DNA of 64,000 nucleotides from an uncultured Actinomycetota bacterium (GCA_963777945.1 CAVZSN010000009.1:22286-86285), one strand, 5' to 3'. Counted from the first letter of the stretch, positions 4,379-14,850 are shown. The notes: generated from the letters alone by a model not told the origin. A program made the numbers and translations.

Positions 4379-5209
4379 TCAACTTTTCCACAGTTCCACA
4401 TCGCCCACGTTCTGGTCGGCGACGGTGGCATCGATAGGGCCCAGCTTCTTGGTGAGATACCCGTCTTTCTCTATGGTGAGGACGTAGCTTGCGTCCCCCA
4501 GGCCCTTGAGCCAGAAGTCGCCGTAGTTGTCGGTGACGGCGGAAAGGGTGTCGCCGGTTTCCGGGTTGGTGGCAGTGACGGTGGCCCCTTGCACGCACTC
4601 ATCGGCCTCGGGGTCATAAAGGGCCCCGGCGATCCACTTCTTGGGCAGGTTCAGGTAGTAGACCCGGGGACGGGTGGGAAGCTCGGGCTTAAGGAGCTCC
4701 GCCTGGGCCAGCTTGTCCTTGACCCGGGGGTCGTCTTCGTCGGCGAAGGTGAAGGCTCCGGTGGGGCAGGCATCTGAGCAGCGGGTCTCGGTCCAGCCCT
4801 GATCTAAGAGATGGGCGCAGAAGGTGCACTTCTGGGCGATGTTGAGGTCGTCGTTGAAGTAGATGACGTTCTCGTAGGGACAGGCTTCCAGACACAGCTG
4901 GTTACCCCGGCACCACTCCGGAGAGATGATGACGATGCCGTCCTCTCTTCGGTAGATGGCTCCGGCCGGACAGGCCTCGATACAGGGAGCCTCCCGGCAG
5001 TGCTGACAGATACTGTGGTGATAGGTCACCATGACCTTGGGTACCGTACCCCGTTCCAGGTCGATCACCTTGTTCCAGAACTGACCCGTATCGGGCTGGG
5101 GTTTGGCGATGGGCGTCCAGTCGTTGGCCACGTGCTCGTCCTTGCAGGCGATCTGGCAGTTGTGGCAGCCGTTACAGATGGCGAGATCGATGAGCATGAC
5201 TTTGGCCAT
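4379..5209 (-). CDS. Fe-S beta subunit of a pyrogallol-transhydroxylase-type (BthL-like) molybdoenzyme
   Basis: 276 aa starting at MAKVMLIDLAICNGCHNCQIACKDEH. Cys groups: CNGCHNCQIAC, CQHCREAPCIEACP, CLEACP, CTFCAHLL..CSDACP. KPELPTRPRVYYLNL is followed by a C-terminal beta-sandwich-like tail (GATVTATNPETGD...YVLTIEKDGY), as in the small subunit of the Pelobacter transhydroxylase. ATG 5209 overlaps the corrected alpha stop. Confidence 0.8.
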   Translation of the reverse strand: MAKVMLIDLAICNGCHNCQIACKDEHVANDWTPIAKPQPDTGQFWNKVIDLERGTVPKVMVTYHHSICQHCREAPCIEACPAGAIYRREDGIVIISPEWCRGNQLCLEACPYENVIYFNDDLNIAQKCTFCAHLLDQGWTETRCSDACPTGAFTFADEDDPRVKDKLAQAELLKPELPTRPRVYYLNLPKKWIAGALYDPEADECVQGATVTATNPETGDTLSAVTDNYGDFWLKGLGDASYVLTIEKDGYLTKKLGPIDATVADQNVGDVELWKS

Positions 5210-7853
5210 CAGGCACCCCCTTCCGTGAAGCCCGCTATGCAGGGCCCGGCGGTGATGTGGCACTCGCGGGCGAACGCTTCGGGATACTTGGACCTGCAGA
5301 CCCTCGAGGTCGGTCTTCTCCACTTCCACCAGGAAGCCGGAGACGGCCATGCCCACCGTGTTCTTGGAGGTGCAGTTGCGGGGCACGATGGTGTTGATCA
5401 CCCCGCCTCGGTCGATCTCGCCGGGGACGATGGGGTCGTACTTGGCGCCGTGGTCGATACCCACCGCCCCGGCGATGATGCGCTCGGTGACGTAGGCGCC
5501 GGCCAGGACGGTGCCGCGCTCGTTGTAGATGCTGACCACATCTCCGTGCTTGATGCCGCGGGCGTTGGCGTCCGCCGGGTTCATCCACAGCGGGTGATAC
5601 TGATAGCCGTCGCTGCCCCGGATCTTGCAGGTGTCGATCTCCCGGAACCAGGTGACGTCGTCGTGCTGGGAGTGCACCCCCCAGCGGGGGTGGTTGCTCA
5701 TGACGAGGAGCGGATACTTCTTCGCGCGCTCCGTCCCCAGGGTCTCCTCGTGCGAGACGCCTTGCGGGATCCACTGCGGCACCGGCGGCCGCTCCGGGTC
5801 GTCGGGGAAGTGCTCGGCCAGACCGGTCGAGTAGAACTCCAGCTTGCCGGTCGGCGTGGAGAGGGGGTGCCTCTCCGGATCCTCGTAGAACTCGATGAAG
5901 CCGGCGGGGATGTCCTCCCAGCCAGGTTCGGTCGGCACGACGTAGTAACCCTTCTCGTTCAGTTCTTCCCAGGAGATCTTGTCGGCGACTCCGGAGAACT
6001 CCCAGCCCGACTTGATGATCTCGGGGATGGTCTGCCCTCCGGTGTATTCCTCGAGTAGTCCCAGCCTCTCTGCGATCTTGCACACCACCTCGTAGTCGCT
6101 CACCGATTCACCGAGTGACTCCATGCACCGGGGCTCGGGATAGAGCATGTCCATCTGCCCGCTGAAGATGTCGGAGCCGATGTCGTCCTCTTCCAACTTG
6201 GTGTTCACCGGCAGGAGCACATCGGCGAAGAGAGCGTCGTTCTCGATCCAAGGATGCTGACACAAAACGAACTCGATGGATTCGTCGCGCAGCGCCCGGA
6301 TGAAGTTGTTGCCATCGTTCCAGCAGGTGATCCACGACGGCGAGTCGGTCCAGATCATGTGGATCTTGGAAGCCCCCTCGGCCGGGTACTTGTACTCCAC
6401 GAACTGGTCGGTGGCTTCGCTCCGCATCCCGTGTCTGTTGCCGTACCAGGTGCCCTCACCGTCGAGGATCAACTTGGGCACCAGGGTCTTGGGGATGCAC
6501 GATTCGCGGCCCTCTTCCGGAGGGATGTCCCCCCGGTAGGCGGCATCCAGACTGATTGACACCTCGGGTTTCGGAGCGGCCTGGTTCTCGGGATCACGGC
6601 CCAGGGCCCACTCGATCATCTTGGCCTGATTGCAGCCCGGCTTGCCCAGCCCCTGCATGGCGAGACAGAGCACCTGCAGCCGGGCGGGCTCGGTGGAGTA
6701 GGGGCCACGGATGGCCGGCCCGCCGTTGGAGATGACGATGGTGGTCCTCTTCGACGCCCATTCGTCGGCCAGGGCCTTGATGATGCGCGCCGGCACTCCT
6801 GTGATGGGCGCCGCCCACTCCGGGCTCTTGGGCTGGCCGTCCTCCTCGCCCCTCACGTAGGCCTCGAACTTGTCGACGCCGTAGGCATGGGTCGCGAGGT
6901 ACTCCTTGTCATAGGTGCCTCGGTCGAACCAGCGGTGGGCGATGGCCAGATACAGGGCGGCGTCGGTGTTGGGGAGGACTGGGATCCACTTGTCGGCGTG
7001 CACGGCGTTGCCGTAGTTGCAGTCGGGCGCGATATAGATCTGCTTGATGCCCAGTTCGCTCCACCAGTAGTTGAAGCGGCTGACGAGTTGTCCGCCCCAT
7101 CCCCAGGGCGTGGTCTCGGGGTCACATCCCCAGAAAAGAAGCAGTTCCGCGTTCTTCGAGATGTCGTAGAGCAGGTTCTTCTGCGGCAGTTGCTGACCGA
7201 TGGGCTCGCAACCCCACACGTGCTTGGCTCCCCAATACCAGCCTTCCCAGGAGTCGGCATTACGCACTTGGTGAGTGTAGCCACCGAAGAGGGCTAAGCA
7301 GCTTCCGCCCGCAGCCGTGGGGTCCGTGCACGGTCTTGTTCTCGCCGTGCTGGTCGTTCTGGTAGAGGATGGCCGTCGGACCGTAGGCCTTCTTGACCCG
7401 CAGCATTTCGCTCGTGACGATGTCCAGCGCCTCGTCCCACGAGATCCGCAGGTACTTGCTCGCTCCCCGGTTCTGGATGTTACGGCCGCCCGGGCCGGTG
7501 GAGCCCGGCGCGCCGGTATGGTCGAAGTCCACGCGCTTCATGGGGTAGCGGATCCGAGCCGGGGAGAAGACCCGCTTCTTGTAGCAGAGGGAAAGCGGCG
7601 GAGGCAGGGTCTTTTCGCCGGGATCGAAGGTCTTGCCCCGGGCGTGCATCACCCAGGGTTTGACCTCCTCCTTGGTGTACTTGTCGTAGAAGCGGGCGGG
7701 GCGGATGCGAAGGACCTTGCCGTCCTTGGTGTCCACCATGCAGGCGTTGCCGCCCCAGGAGACGCCAATGAAGCACATATCGCGGACGATGGTCCTCGCC
7801 TCGGACTGCTGTGACCCGGTCGCCCCTGTCTTCGCCTGGTCGGCCACGTTCAT
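5209..7853 (-). pseudogene. bis-MGD molybdopterin oxidoreductase alpha subunit, transhydroxylase (AthL/RhL) family paralogue; two frame disruptions (near 7297 and 5290)
   Basis: The N-terminus is in ORF 7260..7853 (RBS AGAGGAG, MNVADQ...YPMKRVDFDHTGAPGSTGPGGRNIQNRG). The body is in ORF 4379..7267 (NADSWEGWYWGAKHVWG...). A shift after ...VEVEKTDLEGLQ restores the tail SKYPEAFARECHITAGPCIAGFTEGGA-stop, with TGA at 5211-5209. There is no Tat signal and no N-terminal Cys cluster, as in AthL. Confidence 0.75.
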
Positions 7854-7978: not shown

Positions 7979-8067
7979 GTGTCCCTAGCGTGTCCCCGGA
8001 GGTTGACATGTAGATGCCCCAGGTATAGGATGCCTGATGCGGGCCCATGTGTCCCCATGGTGTCCCC
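7979..8067 (+). promoter_or_regulatory. candidate promoter (TTGACA 8003-8008, 17-nt spacer, TAGGAT 8026-8031) bracketed by two pairs of GTGTCCC(C) direct repeats
   Basis: The repeats start at 7979, 7990, 8049 and 8060, all on the same strand, with 11-bp spacing inside each pair. Pair 1 abuts the -35. Pair 2 lies in the predicted 5' UTR of the gene starting at 8128. Confidence 0.45.
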
Positions 8068-8127
8068 GAACGCAGAATGGATCAGCCCCCGAGGTCGACT
8101 GTCGGGACGCAGCCGGGAGGTACGCCG

Positions 8128-10956
8128 ATGGCCAAGATCACGAAGCGGCTCGTGGACAGCCTCAAACCCGATCCGACCCGCGAGACATTCGTTGCCGACG
8201 ACGAGCTTCCCGGCTTTGGGATCCGGGTCAGGCCGTCCGGGGCCGCCTCGTACATCCTGAGGTACAGGAACGCCGCAGGACTGTCACGGCGGCTCACCAT
8301 CGGCCGGGTGGGCGTCCTCTCACCGGAAGAGGCCCGGCGAGCGGCGCAGCAGCACCTGGCGGCGGTCAAAGGTGGGGCGGACCCGGCGCAGGCGAAGAGG
8401 CAGGCCACCCAGGCCGCAGACCAAGAGCCCAAGGAGGTCCAGCACGGCATCGACGAGCTTCGCCGGTTCAGGATCTTCGCCGAACTGGAAGACGAAGACT
8501 TCGAAGCCATCGCTCACATCGCCCGGGTCAAGGAATTCGAAGTGGCCGAGAAGCTCACCACCGAGGGGGCGCCGGCCGACCAACTCTATCTGTTCTTGAA
8601 GGGGCAGGCGGCGGTCAAGGTCCGTGATCCCTACGGTCGCCAGGTACTCATCGACGAACTCGGCCCCGGAGAGCTTCTAGGTTGGGGAGCAGTGACGGAG
8701 CCCCACGTCTACACGGCTTCGGCGTGGACCAGCCGACCCTCCCAGGCGATCGTCATCGACGGCAAGCGGCTGCGCGACCTCTGTGAAGAGAACAAGCGGA
8801 TCGGCTACGAAGTGGCCAAGGGCGTGGGGGAAGTCATCTCCAAGCGTTTCGGACTTGCTGTGGCCGGCCGGGGGGGTCAGACCCTCGCCGGACACGGCAT
8901 CGACGAACTTCGCCAGTTCAAGATCTTCGCCGAACTGGACCTGGGCGATCTGGACGCCATCGCGCGCATCGCCTATGTGCGCGAGTTCGCAGCCGGGGAG
9001 GAGCTGACGGTGGAGGGCGCTCCTGCCGACCACCTCTATCTGTTCCTCAAAGGCAAGGCCAGGGTCAAGGTCAAAGGCGCCAACGGTCGTCACGCAGTCA
9101 TCGATGAACTCGGCCCCGGGGAGCTCTTGGGTTGGGGAGCCGTCATGGAGCCCCACGTCTATACGGCCTCCGCGTGGACGACGGAACCCAGCGAGGTGAT
9201 CGTCGTCGACGGGACGGATCTTCGCGAACTCTGCAAGACCAGCAAGCACCTGGGATACCAGGTCTGCAAGGGCATCGGCGAGGTCATGTCCACCCGGTTC
9301 GGGCAGGCCGTGACCGGGCAGGGCACTCCCGCGCTTGCCGATCACGGCACGGACGAACTTCGCCAGTTCAGGCTCTTCGCGGAGCTGGAGGACGAGGACT
9401 TCGAGTCCATCGCGCGGATCGCGCGCATCCAGGAGTCCCAACCCGGCGAAGAACTGACCACAGAGGGAACTGCGGCCGACCATCTCTACCTCTTTCTCCA
9501 AGGCAAGGCGGCGGTCACGGTCAAGGGCGCCGACGGCCGCCAGGTGCTCATCGACGAGATCGGTCCCGGGGAGGTGCTGGGCTGGGGAGCGGTGACCGGA
9601 CCTCCTCATGTGTACACGGCCACAGCCTGCACGATGGAACCGTCTCAGCTGATCGTCTTCGACGGCAAGGACCTTCTCCGGCTCTGCGAGACCAACAACC
9701 GCATCGGCTATCAAGTGGCGAAAGGCATCGGCGACATCGTCTCCAAGCGCTTCGGCCGGGTCGCATCGGGCAGGAAGGGGCAGGTTCTGGCGGGACATGC
9801 CATAGACGAACTCCGCCAGTTCAAGATCTTCGCCGAACTGGATGTGGCCGACCTGGATTCCATCGCCCACCTCGCCTATGTCCGGGAGTTCGACGCGGGC
9901 GAGGAACTGATAACGGAAGGCGACCCTGCGGAGCAACTCTACCTGTTCCTGAACGGCAAGGCGGTGGTCAAAGTCCGGGGTGCAGACGGCCGTCAGGTCC
10001 CCATCGACGAGCTCGGTCCCGGCGAGGTGCTGGGTTGGGGAGCGGTCATGGAACCGCACATCTATACGGCTTCCGCGTGGACCCTCGAACCGTCCGAGCT
10101 CGTGATCGTCAAAGGGAATGATCTGCGCGGCCTGTGCGACGCCAACAAGCATTTGGGTTACATGGTGTGCAAGGGGATCGGCGAGGTCATGTCCACTCGC
10201 TTCGGCCAGGCCGTCCGGGGCCATGGGATCGACGAACTGCACCAATTCAAGATCTTCGGGGAGCTCGACTTCGCCGATCTCGACGCAATCGGGCGTATCG
10301 CCCACATCCGAGAGGTCGGACCCGGTGAGGAGCTCATAGCCGAAGGCAAGTCGGCCGACGAGCTGTATCTCTTCTTGGAGGGGAAGGCCTCCGTGAAGGT
10401 ACGTGACCCCGACGGCCACCAGGTGCTCATCGACGAGATCGGTCCCGGAGAGGTGCTGGGTTGGTCGGCCGCGGTGGAACCCTACGTCTACACCGCCTCG
10501 GCCTGGACGAGCGAGCAGTGCGAGCTGATCGTGGTGAACGGCCAACGTCTGCGCCAGCTCTGCGAGAGCAACAAACGCCTCGGCTACCAGGTCACCCGGG
10601 GTATCGGTGAGATCATCTCCAGACGCTTCGGACGAGCCATGGGCGCCCGGGGAGATTTGCAGGATAAGGATCTGCGGGCCTTCGGCGGCGAGGAGCGGGT
10701 CGTCTGGGATGACGGTCTGCTCCAACTTACCACCGAAGCGATCCTCATCGGTATGGGGAGCGACAGCCCCGAGGTGATCCCTCTTGAGGCCGTCTACGAC
10801 GTCGACGTGGAGAACGGTTGCCTTGTCTTCCACGTGCAAGGCGGCGACGTCTGCTCGCACTGCATCGACGATCCGGATCATCTGGCTGCACTGGTCCGTG
10901 ACGAGATGCTGCGCAGCCGCCACGCTCAGAGACGCAAGGACTACTACGTCCACTAG
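8128..10956 (+). CDS. multidomain protein: integrase Arm-type DNA-binding domain (DUF4102-like), five tandem cNMP-binding-like (CAP effector) domains, and an uncharacterised C-terminal domain
   Basis: ATG 8128 is preceded by GGGAGG (8115-8120). The N-terminus MAKITKRLVDSLKP...ELPGFGIRVRPSGAASYILRYRN..RRLTIGRVGVLSPEEARRAA...GGADP matches the P4-type integrase arm domain. It is followed by five ~150-aa units of pattern ELRxFxIFAEL..EG..AD.LYLFL.G...V......G.....IDE.GPGE.LGW. No recombinase catalytic domain is present. Confidence 0.8.
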   Translation: MAKITKRLVDSLKPDPTRETFVADDELPGFGIRVRPSGAASYILRYRNAAGLSRRLTIGRVGVLSPEEARRAAQQHLAAVKGGADPAQAKRQATQAADQEPKEVQHGIDELRRFRIFAELEDEDFEAIAHIARVKEFEVAEKLTTEGAPADQLYLFLKGQAAVKVRDPYGRQVLIDELGPGELLGWGAVTEPHVYTASAWTSRPSQAIVIDGKRLRDLCEENKRIGYEVAKGVGEVISKRFGLAVAGRGGQTLAGHGIDELRQFKIFAELDLGDLDAIARIAYVREFAAGEELTVEGAPADHLYLFLKGKARVKVKGANGRHAVIDELGPGELLGWGAVMEPHVYTASAWTTEPSEVIVVDGTDLRELCKTSKHLGYQVCKGIGEVMSTRFGQAVTGQGTPALADHGTDELRQFRLFAELEDEDFESIARIARIQESQPGEELTTEGTAADHLYLFLQGKAAVTVKGADGRQVLIDEIGPGEVLGWGAVTGPPHVYTATACTMEPSQLIVFDGKDLLRLCETNNRIGYQVAKGIGDIVSKRFGRVASGRKGQVLAGHAIDELRQFKIFAELDVADLDSIAHLAYVREFDAGEELITEGDPAEQLYLFLNGKAVVKVRGADGRQVPIDELGPGEVLGWGAVMEPHIYTASAWTLEPSELVIVKGNDLRGLCDANKHLGYMVCKGIGEVMSTRFGQAVRGHGIDELHQFKIFGELDFADLDAIGRIAHIREVGPGEELIAEGKSADELYLFLEGKASVKVRDPDGHQVLIDEIGPGEVLGWSAAVEPYVYTASAWTSEQCELIVVNGQRLRQLCESNKRLGYQVTRGIGEIISRRFGRAMGARGDLQDKDLRAFGGEERVVWDDGLLQLTTEAILIGMGSDSPEVIPLEAVYDVDVENGCLVFHVQGGDVCSHCIDDPDHLAALVRDEMLRSRHAQRRKDYYVH
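8443..10635 (+). repeat. in-frame tandem array of five ~450-nt coding units (cNMP-binding-like domains)
   Basis: Units begin at 8443, 8893, 9343, 9796 and 10222 (periods 450, 450, 453 and 426 nt), each with CA(C/T)GG/CxATxGACGAACT. The units are diverged, alternating between two subtypes. Confidence 0.85.
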
Positions 10957-10976: not shown

Positions 10977-11807
10977 ATGCATATCATCGTCGACCGTCGT
11001 GAGCTCACAAAGGGGGACATGATTTCCCTGACGGTGGAGGCCCCCGCCATTGCTCGCAAGATCCGCCCCGGGCAGTTCATCATCCTCAGGGTGAACGAGA
11101 CCGGCGAGCGCACGCCCCTCACCGTGGCCTACAAGGATGAGATCCACGGCACGATAACCATCATATTCCAGGTCCTGGGCAAGACCACGGCCATGCTTGC
11201 CTCCCTCAAGGTCGGCGACGCTATCAAGGACCTGGTGGGTCCGCTGGGCTGTGACGAGCGCTTCAACAGGATCGGCACGGTAGTGGGGATCGGGGGGGGC
11301 TCGGGAATAGCCGTTCTCCACCACATCCTGCAAGGGTCCAAAGAGGTGGGGAACTCACTCATAGGCATCATCGGAGCCCGGGAAAAAGCCCTTCTCATAC
11401 TTGAGGACGAGATGGCGGCTCTTTGCGACCGGCTGCTCATCACTACCAACGACGGCAGCGCCGGCATGCACGGCCTGGTCACCGATGCCCTCGCCAAGCT
11501 GGTGGAGGAGCAGGTCCACATCGACCAGGTCATCGCCGTCGGTCCGCTCATCATGATGCGTGCCGTCTGCGAGATGACCAAGCTCTACAAGATCCCCACG
11601 CTGGTAAGCCTCAACCCCATCATGGTCGACGGTACCGGGATGTGTGGCTGCTGCCGGGTGACGGTCGCCGGGGAGTGCAAGTTCGCCTGCGTCGACGGTC
11701 CCCATTTCGACGGCCATCAGGTGGATTTCGACGAGCTCATCCAGCGCAACAGCATGTACTCCCGCGACGAGAGGGCTTCCCTTCTGACCTCGATCAGGGC
11801 CCGCTAG
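10977..11807 (+). CDS. nfnA: NfnA/SudB-type ferredoxin-NADP+ oxidoreductase small subunit (FAD/NAD-binding, 2Fe-2S)
   Basis: 276 aa. RPGQFIILR, GIGGGSGIA and the C-terminal MVDGTGMCGCCRV..CKFACVDGPHFDGH cluster motif. Starts 20 nt after the upstream stop. Confidence 0.75.
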   Translation: MHIIVDRRELTKGDMISLTVEAPAIARKIRPGQFIILRVNETGERTPLTVAYKDEIHGTITIIFQVLGKTTAMLASLKVGDAIKDLVGPLGCDERFNRIGTVVGIGGGSGIAVLHHILQGSKEVGNSLIGIIGAREKALLILEDEMAALCDRLLITTNDGSAGMHGLVTDALAKLVEEQVHIDQVIAVGPLIMMRAVCEMTKLYKIPTLVSLNPIMVDGTGMCGCCRVTVAGECKFACVDGPHFDGHQVDFDELIQRNSMYSRDERASLLTSIRAR

Positions 11808-11816
11808 GAGGTGAGC

Positions 11817-13631
11817 ATGGCGCCGAGGACCGAGACCGAGTCCAAAGGCCTTCCCGCGGGGACCGAGATCGCGGCGTATTGCCCGCACTGTCACCAGGCG
11901 CTGAACGTCTTCGATGCGGCGACCAAACAGGTGTGGGTGCGCCTGATGGTGTCTGCCGACGGGGAGGGGGGAGAGTTGCTCCTGAGCCCCAAGCCCGATG
12001 TGTTCGAGCGACAGGTGAGCGTGGAGCTGAACGAGAGCAGGGTGGTCGACGACGTCTCCTGCCCTCACTGCGGCCGTTCGCTCGTGGAGCAAGGTGTCTG
12101 CGAGGTCTGCGGCGCGCCTGCGGCGCGCCTCGTCATCTATGCACAATCCCGGCTGGTCGAATATTCGATATGCACGAACATGACCTGTCACTGGCACGGG
12201 ATGTCTCGCGCCGACCAGGCCAAGATCAAACCGAAGGTCCCCAGACAGAAGAAGCCCGAGCAGGATGCCCTTCTTCGGATACGTAACTTCAATGAGGTCT
12301 CGTACGGCTTCGACCGGGAACTGGCCGTCCTCGAAGCGAGCCGCTGTCTGGAGTGCAAGAAGCCGGCCTGCGTCGGGGGTTGTCCGGTGGGTATCGACAT
12401 CCCGGGCTTCATCCGCCTGATGAAAGCCGGCGAGTTCGTGGAGGCCGCCAGGCACATCAAGCAGAAGAACGCCCTTCCTGCGGTGTGCGGACGGGTCTGT
12501 CCCCAAGACGATCAGTGTGAGAAGGTGTGCATCGTCGGCAAGAACGGTGACCCGGTGGCCATCGGCAATCTGGAGAGGTTCGCCGCCGACTTCGAGCGCG
12601 AGACCGACTCCGTCTCTCTCCCCCGCAAAGCCACGCCCACCGGCAAGCGCATAGCGGTGGTGGGTAGCGGTCCCGCCGGCCTCACCCTGGCGGCCGATAT
12701 GGTGGCCAAGGGGCACTCGGTCACCGTGTTCGAGTCGCTCCACAAGGCAGGGGGGGTGCTGGTCTACGGGATCCCCGAGTTCCGGCTGCCCAAGGCCATA
12801 GTCGAGTCGGAGATCGACTACCTTCGCCGCCTGGGAGTGAAGATAGAGCTAAACTCCATCGTGGGACGCCTCTACACTCTCGAAGAACTCCTCGAGACCG
12901 GCTACGACGCCATCTTCGTGGGCACCGGCGCGGGGCTGCCCATATTCATGGGACTTCCAGGCGAGAACCTGTGCAACATCCTCTCCGCGAACGAGTACCT
13001 CACCCGGATCAATCTCATGAAGGCCTACGCCTTTCCCGAGTACGACACCCCGGCTCCGAAAGGTCAGCAGGTCGCCGTCCTTGGCGCAGGCAACGTGGCC
13101 ATGGACTGCGCTCGGACTGCGGTACGCATGGGGGCCCGCGAGGTGACCATCGTCTATCGGCGCACCCGAGACGAGATGCCGGCCCGCAGCGAGGAGATCG
13201 AGCACGCCCTGCAGGAAAACGTGAGGTTCCGCTACCTGTCCAGCCCCATCCGTTTCGTCGGAGACGACCGGGGCTGGGTCAGGCAGATGGAGTGCATCCA
13301 GATGCAGCTGGGGGAGCCCGACGCGTCAGGACGGCCGAGGCCGATCCCCAAGGCCGGTTCCAACTTCATCATGGATGTGGATCTGGTCATCGTCGCGGTG
13401 GGGGCAGGTCCTAACCCTGTGCTCTTCTCCGGCTCTCCCGGTCTGGAGCAGACCAAACGGGGCTACATACAGGCGGTGACCCCTTCAGGTCGCACGAGCA
13501 TCCCTCGCGTATGGGCCGGGGGTGACATCGTCACCGGATCGGCTACGGTGATCCTCGCCATGGGCGCCGCCCGTCAGGCGGCCGACGACATGGACGAGTA
13601 TCTGAGAAGCGATTCGGCCGAGTGGCCGTAA
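11817..13631 (+). CDS. nfnB: NfnB/GltD-type NADPH-dependent oxidoreductase large subunit with an extra ~150-aa N-terminal Cys-rich (zinc-ribbon-like) extension
   Basis: AGGAGG at 11806-11811 precedes ATG 11817 (an in-frame GTG at 11811 is also possible). The core has CLECKKPACVGGCPVGIDIPGFI, CGRVCPQDDQCEKVC, VAVVGSGPAGLT and VAVLGAGNVAMD. The extension carries CPHC(24-27), CPHC, CEVC and CTNMTCHWH. Confidence 0.75.
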   Translation: MAPRTETESKGLPAGTEIAAYCPHCHQALNVFDAATKQVWVRLMVSADGEGGELLLSPKPDVFERQVSVELNESRVVDDVSCPHCGRSLVEQGVCEVCGAPAARLVIYAQSRLVEYSICTNMTCHWHGMSRADQAKIKPKVPRQKKPEQDALLRIRNFNEVSYGFDRELAVLEASRCLECKKPACVGGCPVGIDIPGFIRLMKAGEFVEAARHIKQKNALPAVCGRVCPQDDQCEKVCIVGKNGDPVAIGNLERFAADFERETDSVSLPRKATPTGKRIAVVGSGPAGLTLAADMVAKGHSVTVFESLHKAGGVLVYGIPEFRLPKAIVESEIDYLRRLGVKIELNSIVGRLYTLEELLETGYDAIFVGTGAGLPIFMGLPGENLCNILSANEYLTRINLMKAYAFPEYDTPAPKGQQVAVLGAGNVAMDCARTAVRMGAREVTIVYRRTRDEMPARSEEIEHALQENVRFRYLSSPIRFVGDDRGWVRQMECIQMQLGEPDASGRPRPIPKAGSNFIMDVDLVIVAVGAGPNPVLFSGSPGLEQTKRGYIQAVTPSGRTSIPRVWAGGDIVTGSATVILAMGAARQAADDMDEYLRSDSAEWP

Positions 13632-13653: not shown

Positions 13654-14850
13654 GTGGAGTCGATCAGACCCATCTTCAAGATTGGGCACGGGCCGTCGAG
13701 CAGTCATACCATAGGTCCGGCCCGGGCGGCGGCGATCTTCGCCGGCTGGAACGAGTCCGCCTCTCGGTTCAGGGTGACGCTCCACGGGAGTCTGGCGCTC
13801 ACGGGACACGGTCACGGTACCGATCAGGCGATCGCCAAGACACTCTCGGATCGCCAAGTGGACGTGGTCTGGCGCCCCGACGTCGAGCTCCCGCTCCATC
13901 CCAACGGCATGGTCTTCGAGGCTCTCGATACCGCTGGGGTGCCGGTGGATTCCTGGGTGGTCTACAGCGTGGGAGGAGGCGATCTTCGAGACGATTCCGG
14001 TCGATTCTCGGAAGAGATCGTCACGTTCCCCCACGATACCTTCGCGGAGATCCTCGGCTGGTGCGAGAGCACCGGCAGGGAGCTCTGGCAGTATGTCGAC
14101 GATTTCGACCGGCAGCCGGGAGTGCGCGACCATCTGGCCGACGTTTGGGCGGAGATGCAGGCTTCGGTAGAAAGGGGGCTGGTGGCGGAGGGCGTGCTAC
14201 CCGGTCCACTGCGGTTGGCGCGAAAGGCGAAGCACTACCACGCGCACGCGCTCGAAGGACGAGGAAGCGCCGACCGCGGTCTCGCGTTCGCTTTCGCGTT
14301 GGCAGTGGCCGAAGAGAACGCTGCAGGCGGGATCGTGGTGACCGCTCCCACGTGCGGCGCCTCCGGTGTAGTACCGGCGGTGCTCATGGTGGCACAGCAG
14401 ACTCTGGGCAGCTCGGAGGCGGAGGTGATCAAGGCCTTGGCCACCGCCGGCCTGGTGGCCAGCCGGGTGAAAAGCGGCGCCTCCATCTCGGGCGCCGAAG
14501 TGGGTTGCCAGGGGGAGATCGGCACCGCGTGCGCCATGGCAGCGGCGGCTGCGACCTTCCTGATGGGAGGAACGCCCAAGCACGTGGAATATGCTGCAGA
14601 GATGGGGCTGGAGCACTATCTCGGGCTTACCTGTGACCCCATCGGGGGATACGTGCAGATTCCCTGCATCGAGCGGAACGCTCTGGCGGCGGATCATGCC
14701 TGGGCCTGCGCCGTCTACGCCCTGTACTCCGACGGGTCACATGACATCTCCTTCGACCGCATCGTCAGGACCGTGCTGGAGACCGGGCGCGACATCCCGG
14801 CGGCATATCGGGAGACCGGCCTTGGAGGGCTGGCTGGCGGCTACGCTTGA
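13654..14850 (+). CDS. sdaA: L-serine ammonia-lyase (Fe-S dependent L-serine dehydratase)
   Basis: GTG start. N-terminal IFKIGHGPSSSHTIGP, then PTCGASGVVPAV and the GCQGEIGTACAMAA motifs. Confidence 0.8.
   Translation: MESIRPIFKIGHGPSSSHTIGPARAAAIFAGWNESASRFRVTLHGSLALTGHGHGTDQAIAKTLSDRQVDVVWRPDVELPLHPNGMVFEALDTAGVPVDSWVVYSVGGGDLRDDSGRFSEEIVTFPHDTFAEILGWCESTGRELWQYVDDFDRQPGVRDHLADVWAEMQASVERGLVAEGVLPGPLRLARKAKHYHAHALEGRGSADRGLAFAFALAVAEENAAGGIVVTAPTCGASGVVPAVLMVAQQTLGSSEAEVIKALATAGLVASRVKSGASISGAEVGCQGEIGTACAMAAAAATFLMGGTPKHVEYAAEMGLEHYLGLTCDPIGGYVQIPCIERNALAADHAWACAVYALYSDGSHDISFDRIVRTVLETGRDIPAAYRETGLGGLAGGYA

Follow-up and report, generated by a model that had tools for sequence, protein, structure and literature searches.

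This article describes a gene on the plus strand (positions 8128-10956) of a 64,000-nucleotide stretch of DNA from an uncultured Actinomycetota bacterium (GCA_963777945.1 CAVZSN010000009.1:22286-86285), referred to here, at its full length, as the window. The gene encodes a soil actinobacterial protein of 942 residues with an Arm-type DNA-binding domain, five non-canonical units resembling cyclic nucleotide-binding (CNB) domains and a PH-like domain. At the level of sequence the five units are shown to be intact CNB folds that are not receptors for cAMP or cGMP. The gene is located directly upstream of nfnA- and nfnB-like genes. These encode an NfnAB-type NAD(P)H/ferredoxin flavoenzyme, for which, with a probability of about one half, the protein serves as a multivalent accessory or regulatory partner, a reading that includes ligand-binding or docking steps as well as feedback through the Arm domain. 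Locus names (L001-L105) and protein cluster names (P0002-P0162) are labels of this analysis.

The longest frame extends over positions 8047-10956. The ATG at 8128 is preceded by the ribosome-binding site GGGAGG, and the product starting from this codon is 100% identical to a database cluster representative (P0002, 942 residues). Pfam detects five cNMP_binding domains in this protein (PF00027, total E = 4e-92).

Replacement of the cyclic nucleotide-binding hallmarks

In canonical CNB domains a Glu of the phosphate-binding cassette (PBC) holds the ribose 2'-OH and an Arg of the same cassette (Arg209 in protein kinase A (PKA), Arg82 in CAP) clamps the cyclic phosphate; both positions point into the ribose-phosphate subsite. 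In the window protein these positions are occupied by Trp and Tyr, respectively, in all five units. Unit 1 (8443-8892, type A, cassette GWGAVTEPHVYTASA) carries Trp186 (8683-8685) and Tyr195 (8710-8712), and unit 2 (8893-9342, type B) Trp336 (9133-9135) and Tyr345 (9160-9162). Unit 3 (9343-9795, type A), with a one-residue insertion in the cassette loop (TGPPH), has Trp486 (9583-9585) and Tyr496 (9613-9615). Unit 4 (9796-10221, type B), which has a shorter linker, contributes Trp637 (10036-10038) and Tyr646 (10063-10065), and unit 5 (10222-10635, terminal type, cassette GWSAAVEPYVYTASA) Trp779 (10462-10464) and Tyr788 (10489-10491).

The position of the Tyr was established by several comparisons. 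A phmmer search against PDB sequences aligned unit 1 without gaps to the CRP of Mycobacterium tuberculosis, including GPGELLGWGAVTEPHVYTASA, and set 'PRTSSA' over 'VYTASA', so that the Arg corresponds to Tyr and the next Thr to Thr. Canonical domains retrieved by hmmsearch with a profile of the units (P0051, 'GELSII..DGRPRSASA') fall in the same frame, with Tyr at the Arg. The 17-residue PBC consensus strings of Kannan et al. (2007), of which GELALIYGTPRAATVVA is an example, also fit the units without gaps (PMC2246266). These comparisons bear out the initial annotation of this DNA, which had placed Tyr at the phosphate-clamp position of the five units; the motifs that it quoted (HVYTASA, HVYTASA, HVYTATA, HIYTASA and YVYTASA) are all present. 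It had regarded a conserved Arg elsewhere in the cassette as contrary to its claim, and none was seen: the cassettes of the five units contain neither Arg nor Lys, which makes the loss of the Arg independent of the alignment register. A different register was produced by hhalign against Escherichia coli CRP alone, where Gly-Trp falls on G71-E72 and a subsequent shift of two residues places Ala under R82. This shifted register, which matches 'SAW' with 'SAW' and in which CRP has one extra loop residue, appears less likely.

Two other elements of the early description of the cassette had to be abandoned. It was proposed that the cassette Gly-Glu was kept, in the form of GPGE, and that the loop was about three residues longer; reasoning from these two points does not hold. 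The canonical Gly-Glu (FGEL in M. tuberculosis CRP, IGEL in E. coli CRP) aligns with L-G-W, and GPGE aligns four residues before it with the upstream 'GPSD'/'QGDF'. Anchoring the cassette on GPGE is thus ruled out by the alignments with M. tuberculosis CRP, E. coli CRP and canonical bacterial CNB domains; the Gly-Glu is replaced. Gly and Tyr lie 10 residues apart, a spacing shared with PKA and M. tuberculosis CRP, and only unit 3 has one residue more; the loop seemed longer because the cassette had been anchored on the wrong Gly-Glu. In agreement with the corrected frame, the short cassette helix begins at the Trp in the AlphaFold2 (AF2) model, whereas canonical domains begin it at the Glu.

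A third hallmark lies outside the cassette. The Gly between strands beta2 and beta3 (PKA Gly169) is co-conserved with the cassette Arg, on which it packs (Kannan et al., 2007; PMC2246266). In the units this position is an invariant Ala (E-G-x-x-A-D/E). The alignments show that the three hallmark positions were replaced together (Glu by Trp, Arg by Tyr, Gly169 by Ala), which argues that the units are not cAMP or cGMP receptors. The public names of the family members ('cAMP-binding' or 'CRP-like') are contradicted by their own sequences.

The idea that cAMP, cGMP, cCMP/cUMP or a cyclic dinucleotide remains a ligand of the units, with an Arg of the C-helix as clamp and the Trp and Tyr stacked on the base, is considered highly improbable. 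It draws on an Arg at the end of the C-helix (S-x-R-F-G; residues 240, 390, 541, 691 and 833) that is near-invariant, being found in 97% of the wider family, and that in an extrapolated alignment would fall near T127/S128 of CRP, lid residues that contact cAMP. It also draws on PADLOC matches to the CNB part of Pycsar TIR effectors. Against it stand the replacement of all three co-evolving hallmark positions, the lack of an effector domain or nearby cyclase gene and an operon context of redox metabolism rather than signaling or defense. The PADLOC matches cover just the CNB portion of the PycTIR profiles, and Pfam detected no TIR domain in the protein and no cyclase gene next to it in the loci examined; a defense role of the Pycsar/CBASS type was ruled out since these matches are confined to the CNB part.

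Conservation and duplication of the units

A word-indexed search retrieved 32 clusters of relatives, and those with a taxonomic assignment all belong to metagenome-assembled genomes (MAGs) of uncultured Actinomycetota, Thermoleophilia or Gaiellales. Gly-Trp occurs in 146 of the 146 units of these relatives, which amount to about 30 orthologues, while the Arg position is taken by Tyr in 141, His in four and Cys in one. Within the window gene the units are 58-77% identical in protein sequence; at identical residues their third-codon positions are just 50-62% identical, with synonymous sites near saturation, and the Tyr codons of units 1-5 alternate (TAC, TAT, TAC, TAT, TAC). The low third-position identity and the alternating codons imply that the copies are old and that the aromatic pair is held by selection. 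Purifying selection on Trp and Tyr is indicated by these data, which neither decay nor recent gene conversion would fit. The core of the original inference, that a substitution kept across diverged copies reflects selection for something other than cAMP or cGMP, or a structural role, is supported by this conservation in 141 to 146 of 146 units.

The repeat structure is visible at the DNA level, where Tandem Repeats Finder reports a period of 450 nucleotides (3.9 copies, 70% matches, score 1474). The unit starts at 8443, 8893, 9343, 9796 and 10222 agree with the periods of 450, 450, 453 and 426 nucleotides given earlier. Two alternating subtypes had been recognized as well, and this holds: identity is 76.8% between units 2 and 4 and 68.7% between units 1 and 3, compared with 58-66% for the other pairs, and 11 informative columns favor the grouping (1,3)(2,4), with 2 and 3 columns for the other possible groupings. 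A tree was built for 65 units taken from 15 proteins, with support values from the Shimodaira-Hasegawa-like approximate likelihood ratio test (SH-aLRT). Unit 1 joins most of the third units (SH-aLRT 84), window unit 2 joins the unit-4 clade (91), and the last unit of every protein falls in a clade of its own (93). Unit 5 had been described as mixed and as the final A of an AB-AB-A history; the pairing of A and B stood, with moderate support, while unit 5 turned out to be a distinct terminal unit. The array is best written as A-B-A-B-T, where T always adjoins the C-terminal domain, and duplication of a two-unit module is plausible although only moderately supported by the tree.

Among family members the unit count ranges from one to five, every value in between being represented. 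Proteins with two units combine a B-type unit with a terminal-type unit. In P0029 and P0030 all three units are of the terminal type, which points to an independent expansion of the array.

Linkage to an NfnAB-type flavoenzyme

The nfnA-like gene (10977-11807, plus strand) starts 21 nucleotides downstream of the CNB-repeat gene and codes for a FAD/NAD-binding and [2Fe-2S] subunit (NCBIfam PRK06222, 376 bits, cut-off 220) that also matches the Pfam family DHODB_Fe-S_bind. The nfnB/gltA-like gene (11811-13631, plus strand) follows after 4 nucleotides (TIGR01316, 569.5 bits, cut-off 471.75). Both assignments are above curated cut-offs, and the enzyme is a predicted one. The same order (CNB-repeat gene, nfnA, nfnB) is found in 11 related loci from different MAGs, with gaps of 4-70 nucleotides or an overlap, and the NfnA-like products encoded at this position are 87-93% identical. 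The order is independent of the presence of the Arm domain and of whether the protein has 3, 4 or 5 units.

A second link is provided by NfnB itself, which has a Cys-rich N-terminal extension (residues 1-140; 11811-12230, plus strand) with CPHC...CPHC...CEVC and CTNMTCHWH motifs and a weak, non-significant likeness to zinc-ribbon and rubredoxin-like segments (E = 0.2-0.9). A search with this extension alone retrieved just 23 clusters, many of them on contigs that carry the CNB-repeat gene, and in each of the three additional loci that were picked from this list, nfnB is preceded by nfnA and the CNB-repeat gene. The distributions of the CNB-repeat gene and of the NfnB extension are shown by these searches to match, the extension being found solely with this gene. 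The tight linkage to nfnAB together with this co-distribution suggests that the protein acts on or with NfnAB.

Gly-Trp domains in group 3b hydrogenase operons

The units belong to a wider family. An exhaustive phmmer search with unit 1 yielded 4887 proteins at E <= 1e-3, of which 455 reached E <= 1e-10, and many of these relatives are single domains of about 150 residues. The family signature is GW(S/G)...P..(Y/F/W)T...GY...R(F/L). Among 126 Gly-Trp domains outside the core family, Ser follows the Trp in 95%, Pro occurs six residues past the Trp (the Pro of P-H-x-Y) in 87%, the C-helix region carries Gly in 96% and Tyr in 71%, and Arg near the end of the C-helix is present in 97%. The Arg209 position of all 171 non-core domains is mostly Tyr, Phe, Trp or Leu.

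Two distant relatives, from Zixibacteria and Actinomycetota, were located between hyhB and hyhG of group 3b [NiFe]-hydrogenase operons. Metagenome contigs were scanned with an alignment of this hydrogenase-linked subtype, which gave 275 confirmed relatives, of which 80 were fetched and their neighbors scored by tblastn. On many metagenome contigs from soil and sediment the single-domain gene is a regular fifth gene of group 3b operons (L018, 3036-8112; L017, 6866-11843; L026-L105). Counting the loci with enough flank, an HyhG/NfnA-like gene lies directly downstream in 48 of 59, in 39 of 48 the single-domain gene is immediately preceded by an HyhB-like one, and in 20 of 24 a NiFe large subunit is encoded no farther than 3 kb away. 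These relatives are mentioned in the literature in passing only; a gene cluster for the 3b hydrogenase of Rhodococcus equi lists such a CNB-like gene (PMC13332983). In P0162 (323 residues) the HycI hydrogenase maturation protease (PF01750) is fused to a Gly-Trp CNB-like domain, GGSIGWSVFVEPHEYTVSG.

The hydrogenase-operon relatives resemble the window units in that the cassette starts with Gly-Trp and contains Pro-His, the Arg position is aromatic and both the G-Y motif and the Arg motif of the C-helix are present, and their gene is likewise directly upstream of one for an NfnA-homologous FAD/[2Fe-2S] subunit. They differ in having one domain of about 150-165 residues and no PH-like domain, in their partner, which is a hydrogenase, and in the residue at the Arg position, which is Trp and not Tyr (GWAWLFPPHxWHF). 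Both contexts, as judged from the encoded proteins, share an NfnA/HyhG-type FAD/[2Fe-2S] subunit that binds NAD(P)H. It is possible, though only tentatively proposed, that Gly-Trp CNB-like domains constitute a widespread class of dedicated partner subunits for NfnA/HyhG-type modules, in group 3b hydrogenases as well as in actinobacterial NfnAB, that sense a pyridine nucleotide or another non-cyclic ligand in the aromatic pocket and gate activity. On this view the window protein would be a multivalent version, one that both represses the operon encoding it and tethers or regulates an enzyme of the electron-bifurcating type.

Fold of the array and of the C-terminal domain

In the full-length AF2 model, with a mean predicted local distance difference test (pLDDT) score of 75, each unit is an ordered CNB fold (pLDDT 75-90) composed of flanking helices and a beta-barrel, and the units are joined by disordered linkers as beads on a string. 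The predicted template modeling (pTM) score of 0.28 corresponds to no confident packing between domains, and the model is uninformative on pseudo-dimers. An invariant Cys is present in the helix motif L-R-x-L-C of each unit (residues 219, 369, 520, 670 and 812), an invariant His at the start of the unit (H-G-I-D-E-L), and the second residue ahead of the cassette Tyr is His or Tyr. Only the core family has these Cys, His and His/Tyr positions, for which a function in metal binding or redox chemistry is conceivable.

The region after unit 5 (10636-10953, plus strand) comprises a linker and a C-terminal domain of about 90 residues. Its last ~105 residues have no Pfam match and are conserved, according to the alignment, in every family member, whatever the number of units. 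When modeled alone (AF2, pLDDT 76, pTM 0.65) the domain shows seven strands and a long basic C-terminal helix (RxRxAQRRKDYY). Foldseek against the PDB returned almost only PH, PTB and FERM-F3 domains, with template modeling (TM) scores of ~0.5 and weak E-values (8e-3 to 0.1), and on the basis of the model the domain is assigned, with moderate confidence, as PH-like.

The beads-on-a-string model and the independent expansions to between 1 and 5 units would also suit a ligand-free scaffold, in which Trp and Tyr plug the old pocket and the units serve as repeated interaction modules that cluster or tether NfnAB or NfnA-type complexes. Two bulky aromatic residues are found at exactly the two positions of the ribose-phosphate subsite, and in the CNB homology (CNBH) domains of KCNH channels an intrinsic ligand fills the pocket. 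Further precedents for ligand-free CNB homology are a weak Pfam match of the units to the CNBH domain of CNNM2 and PDZ-GEF, which is unliganded (PMC2246266). The strong conservation at the cassette (P-H-x-Y-T-A-S-A-W-T) and at the C-helix lid (G-Y, R-F-G) exceeds what a plug would need, and this scaffold is judged distinctly unlikely.

Comparison with known systems

The closest functional parallel is HoxI, a CNB-like protein reported to sit as a dimer on the diaphorase module of the soluble NAD+-reducing [NiFe]-hydrogenase of Cupriavidus necator (HoxFUYHI2) and to supply its NADPH activation site (PMC3702609; PMC12319191; PMC3189943). HoxI is also a CNB-fold protein with neither a DNA-binding nor a kinase partner, its gene belongs to an operon for an Fe-S flavoenzyme linked to NAD(P), and the cassette of the pHG1 protein, VGELGFIDQTPHSLSV, lacks the Arg like the window units, with a His at that place ('TPHSLSV'). 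Unlike the window protein, HoxI keeps the cassette Gly-Glu and is a homodimer of a single domain, without PH-like or Arm domains. Its partner is HoxF, of the Complex-I type, and not an NfnA/HyhG-type subunit, and the window operon contains nfnAB rather than hoxFUYH. HoxI as a true homologue was ruled out by sequence comparison and is kept here as a functional analogy.

Among solved structures the best match is PDB 3MDP (E = 6e-14), a CNMP-BD protein of 142 residues from structural genomics, for which the literature search found no publication and the resources consulted record neither a function nor a ligand. It shares the Tyr (in 'KPYHYTSSA') and the lack of a cassette Glu, having G-V there, and differs in being a single domain with Val instead of Trp after the Gly. 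The full-length model was matched by Foldseek to Plasmodium PKG and then to PKA regulatory subunits (PKA-R), including trypanosome ones. Trypanosome PKA-R is cAMP-independent and binds nucleosides. Plasmodium PKG has four tandem CNB domains, one of them degenerate, and three bind cGMP through canonical cassettes. The likeness consists in the multi-CNB array (top match, E ~3e-30); the global TM score is ~0.2, individual domains match only, and PKG is a eukaryotic kinase.

Replacement of the cassette Arg is well known from CooA, CprK, PDZ-GEF, KCNH and trypanosome PKA-R. The CBS-linked and HTH_ARSR families already have Tyr at Arg209 (Kannan et al., 2007; PMC2246266), and this makes the Tyr-for-Arg part of the finding unsurprising. 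Non-canonical families (CBS-linked, HTH_ARSR, CooA/FixK, CprK and PDZ-GEF) have in common with the units that the Arg was replaced and the ligand changed or lost; CprK and CooA bind a phenolic acid and haem, respectively, through non-canonical cassettes, and PDZ-GEF is unliganded (PMC2246266). In contrast to the window protein, these families keep Gly-Glu or have a different cassette as a whole, and show no five-domain array or link to NfnAB. The Gly-Trp start occurs in 0 of the 30 consensus cassettes of Kannan et al. (2007) (PMC2246266). Literature searches yielded no paper that connects CNB domains with Nfn, and a protein that combines five units with an Arm head and a PH-like tail, encoded in an nfnAB operon, seems not to have been described before.

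Arm domain, promoter repeats and adjacent genes

The N-terminal part of the protein (8128-8442, plus strand) consists of an Arm DNA-binding domain (PF13356, E = 3.2e-15, 56.5 bits, cut-off 27) and a disordered linker. In the AF2 model the domain has four strands and helices with pLDDT ~85, and residues 87-107 of the linker score <50. Searching the 942-residue protein with Pfam detected no catalytic Phage_integrase/recombinase domain after the Arm domain, which is followed by the CNB units. A degraded integrase was ruled out, given the absence of the recombinase domain and the maintenance of the Arm-plus-CNB architecture in several species. The same search gave no winged helix-turn-helix (HTH) match of the HTH_Crp type, and a CRP/FNR-type regulator was ruled out for lack of an HTH domain; the NCBIfam matches to CRP, FtrB and FNR cover the CNB part alone, with scores reached by summing five domains.

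Upstream of the gene there are four GTGTCCC direct repeats (7979-8066, plus strand) arranged as two pairs with 11-bp spacing (7979 and 7990; 8049 and 8060) that flank a promoter-like site (TTGACA...TATAGG). Similar phased repeats precede the Arm-bearing orthologues in L004, L009, L010 and L012, and no such repeats were seen upstream of six Arm-less loci (L005, L006, L007, L011, L013 and L015). The repeats are candidate operators for the Arm domain, and the Arm-bearing forms probably also autoregulate through the predicted DNA binding. Since most members have no DNA-binding domain, autoregulation cannot be the general function of the family.

On the minus strand, divergent from the CNB-repeat gene, the window encodes the alpha and beta subunits of a molybdoenzyme of the transhydroxylase (AhtL/BthL-like) type (4379-7853). 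It accompanies all Arm-bearing loci except L016, as well as the Arm-less L013. The alpha subunit is split across frames near 7260, and the open reading frame (ORF) continues into the Fe-S beta subunit and a CarboxypepD_reg tail. An alignment with the orthologues of L004 and L013 spans 658 residues of the alpha subunit, which in L013 is a single ORF of 904 residues; the frame breaks in the window are probably assembly indels. Downstream of nfnB a serine dehydratase gene (SDH_alpha and SDH_beta, 13654-14850) is present, which is conserved in L004, partly in L001 and L010, and not in Arm-less loci.

These features raise the question of whether the main role of the protein is that of a transcription factor responding to a ligand, either a reversed CRP or a redox regulator like Rex, for which the nfnAB and molybdoenzyme operons would be regulated targets and not partners. 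The Arm domain would bind GTGTCCC while the units sense a small molecule, for example the NAD(P)H/NAD(P)+ ratio or a phenolic substrate of the molybdoenzyme. The presence of the Arm domain, the restriction of the phased repeats to Arm-bearing orthologues and the divergent molybdoenzyme in all of these loci but L016 speak for such a factor, and the ligands of CprK and CooA show what non-canonical cassettes can bind (PMC2246266). This explanation is nevertheless thought unlikely. Most members (the forms of 839-846 residues as well as those with 3 and 4 units) have neither the Arm nor another recognizable DNA-binding domain, yet they retain the units, the PH-like domain and the linkage to nfnAB; the single-domain Gly-Trp relatives of hydrogenase operons also lack a DNA-binding domain, and five tandem sensors would be unusual for a transcription factor.

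Proposed function

For the protein as a partner of NfnAB the following steps are envisaged. Pockets lined by Trp and Tyr would bind a non-cyclic ligand, with a pyridine dinucleotide as the leading candidate by analogy with HoxI; alternatively, they may be self-filled, and the units would then be modules for docking to proteins. Attachment of the array to NfnAB would be the task of the PH-like C-terminal domain, and the Cys-rich N-terminal extension of NfnB is a candidate docking site, plausible because it co-occurs with the PH-like domain. In the Arm-bearing subgroup the Arm domain would bind the phased GTGTCCC repeats at its own promoter, through which free protein may feed back on its own operon and possibly on the divergent molybdoenzyme operon.

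Several points weigh against this partnership. Gene order alone cannot separate a subunit of the enzyme from a regulator of it. Three short members have no adjacent nfnAB: L012 (7899-9482) encodes the Arm domain, two units and the PH-like domain and resembles the L001 locus minus nfnAB; L013 (8013-9176), without the Arm, has two units and the PH-like domain; and L015 (8031-8756), also Arm-less, has one unit and the PH-like domain. The divergent molybdoenzyme is kept in L012 and L013. The hydrogenase-linked subfamily is just 27-33% identical to the window units. The likeness of HoxI to the units is not significant (BLASTP E = 2.8; hhalign probability 0.5%); as a protein that keeps Gly-Glu and is related by fold only, it provides a purely functional analogy. 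With regard to the ligand, the C-helix Arg could be a relocated anion clamp for an anionic nucleotide, and a pocket of Trp and Tyr, being aromatic, could just as well accommodate a phenolic compound or remain without a ligand.

Significance

CNB domains are routinely annotated as 'cAMP-binding' or 'CRP-like', and by its sequence this family is a counterexample. Literature searches found no protein-level regulation of NfnAB or of group 3b hydrogenases, HoxI being a loose precedent. The reach of the finding is limited for now, the family being small and so far recorded from uncultured Actinomycetota alone, while the hydrogenase-linked relatives are common in soil metagenomes. If the proposed function is true, the protein would be an example of natural modular re-use, in which the arm-binding domain of an integrase serves as an operator-binding head and a sensor fold is repeated one to five times. 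The partnership would represent a new regulatory or docking subunit for NfnAB-type transhydrogenases and group 3b hydrogenases, enzymes on which anaerobic redox balance and the cycling of H2 in soil centrally depend.

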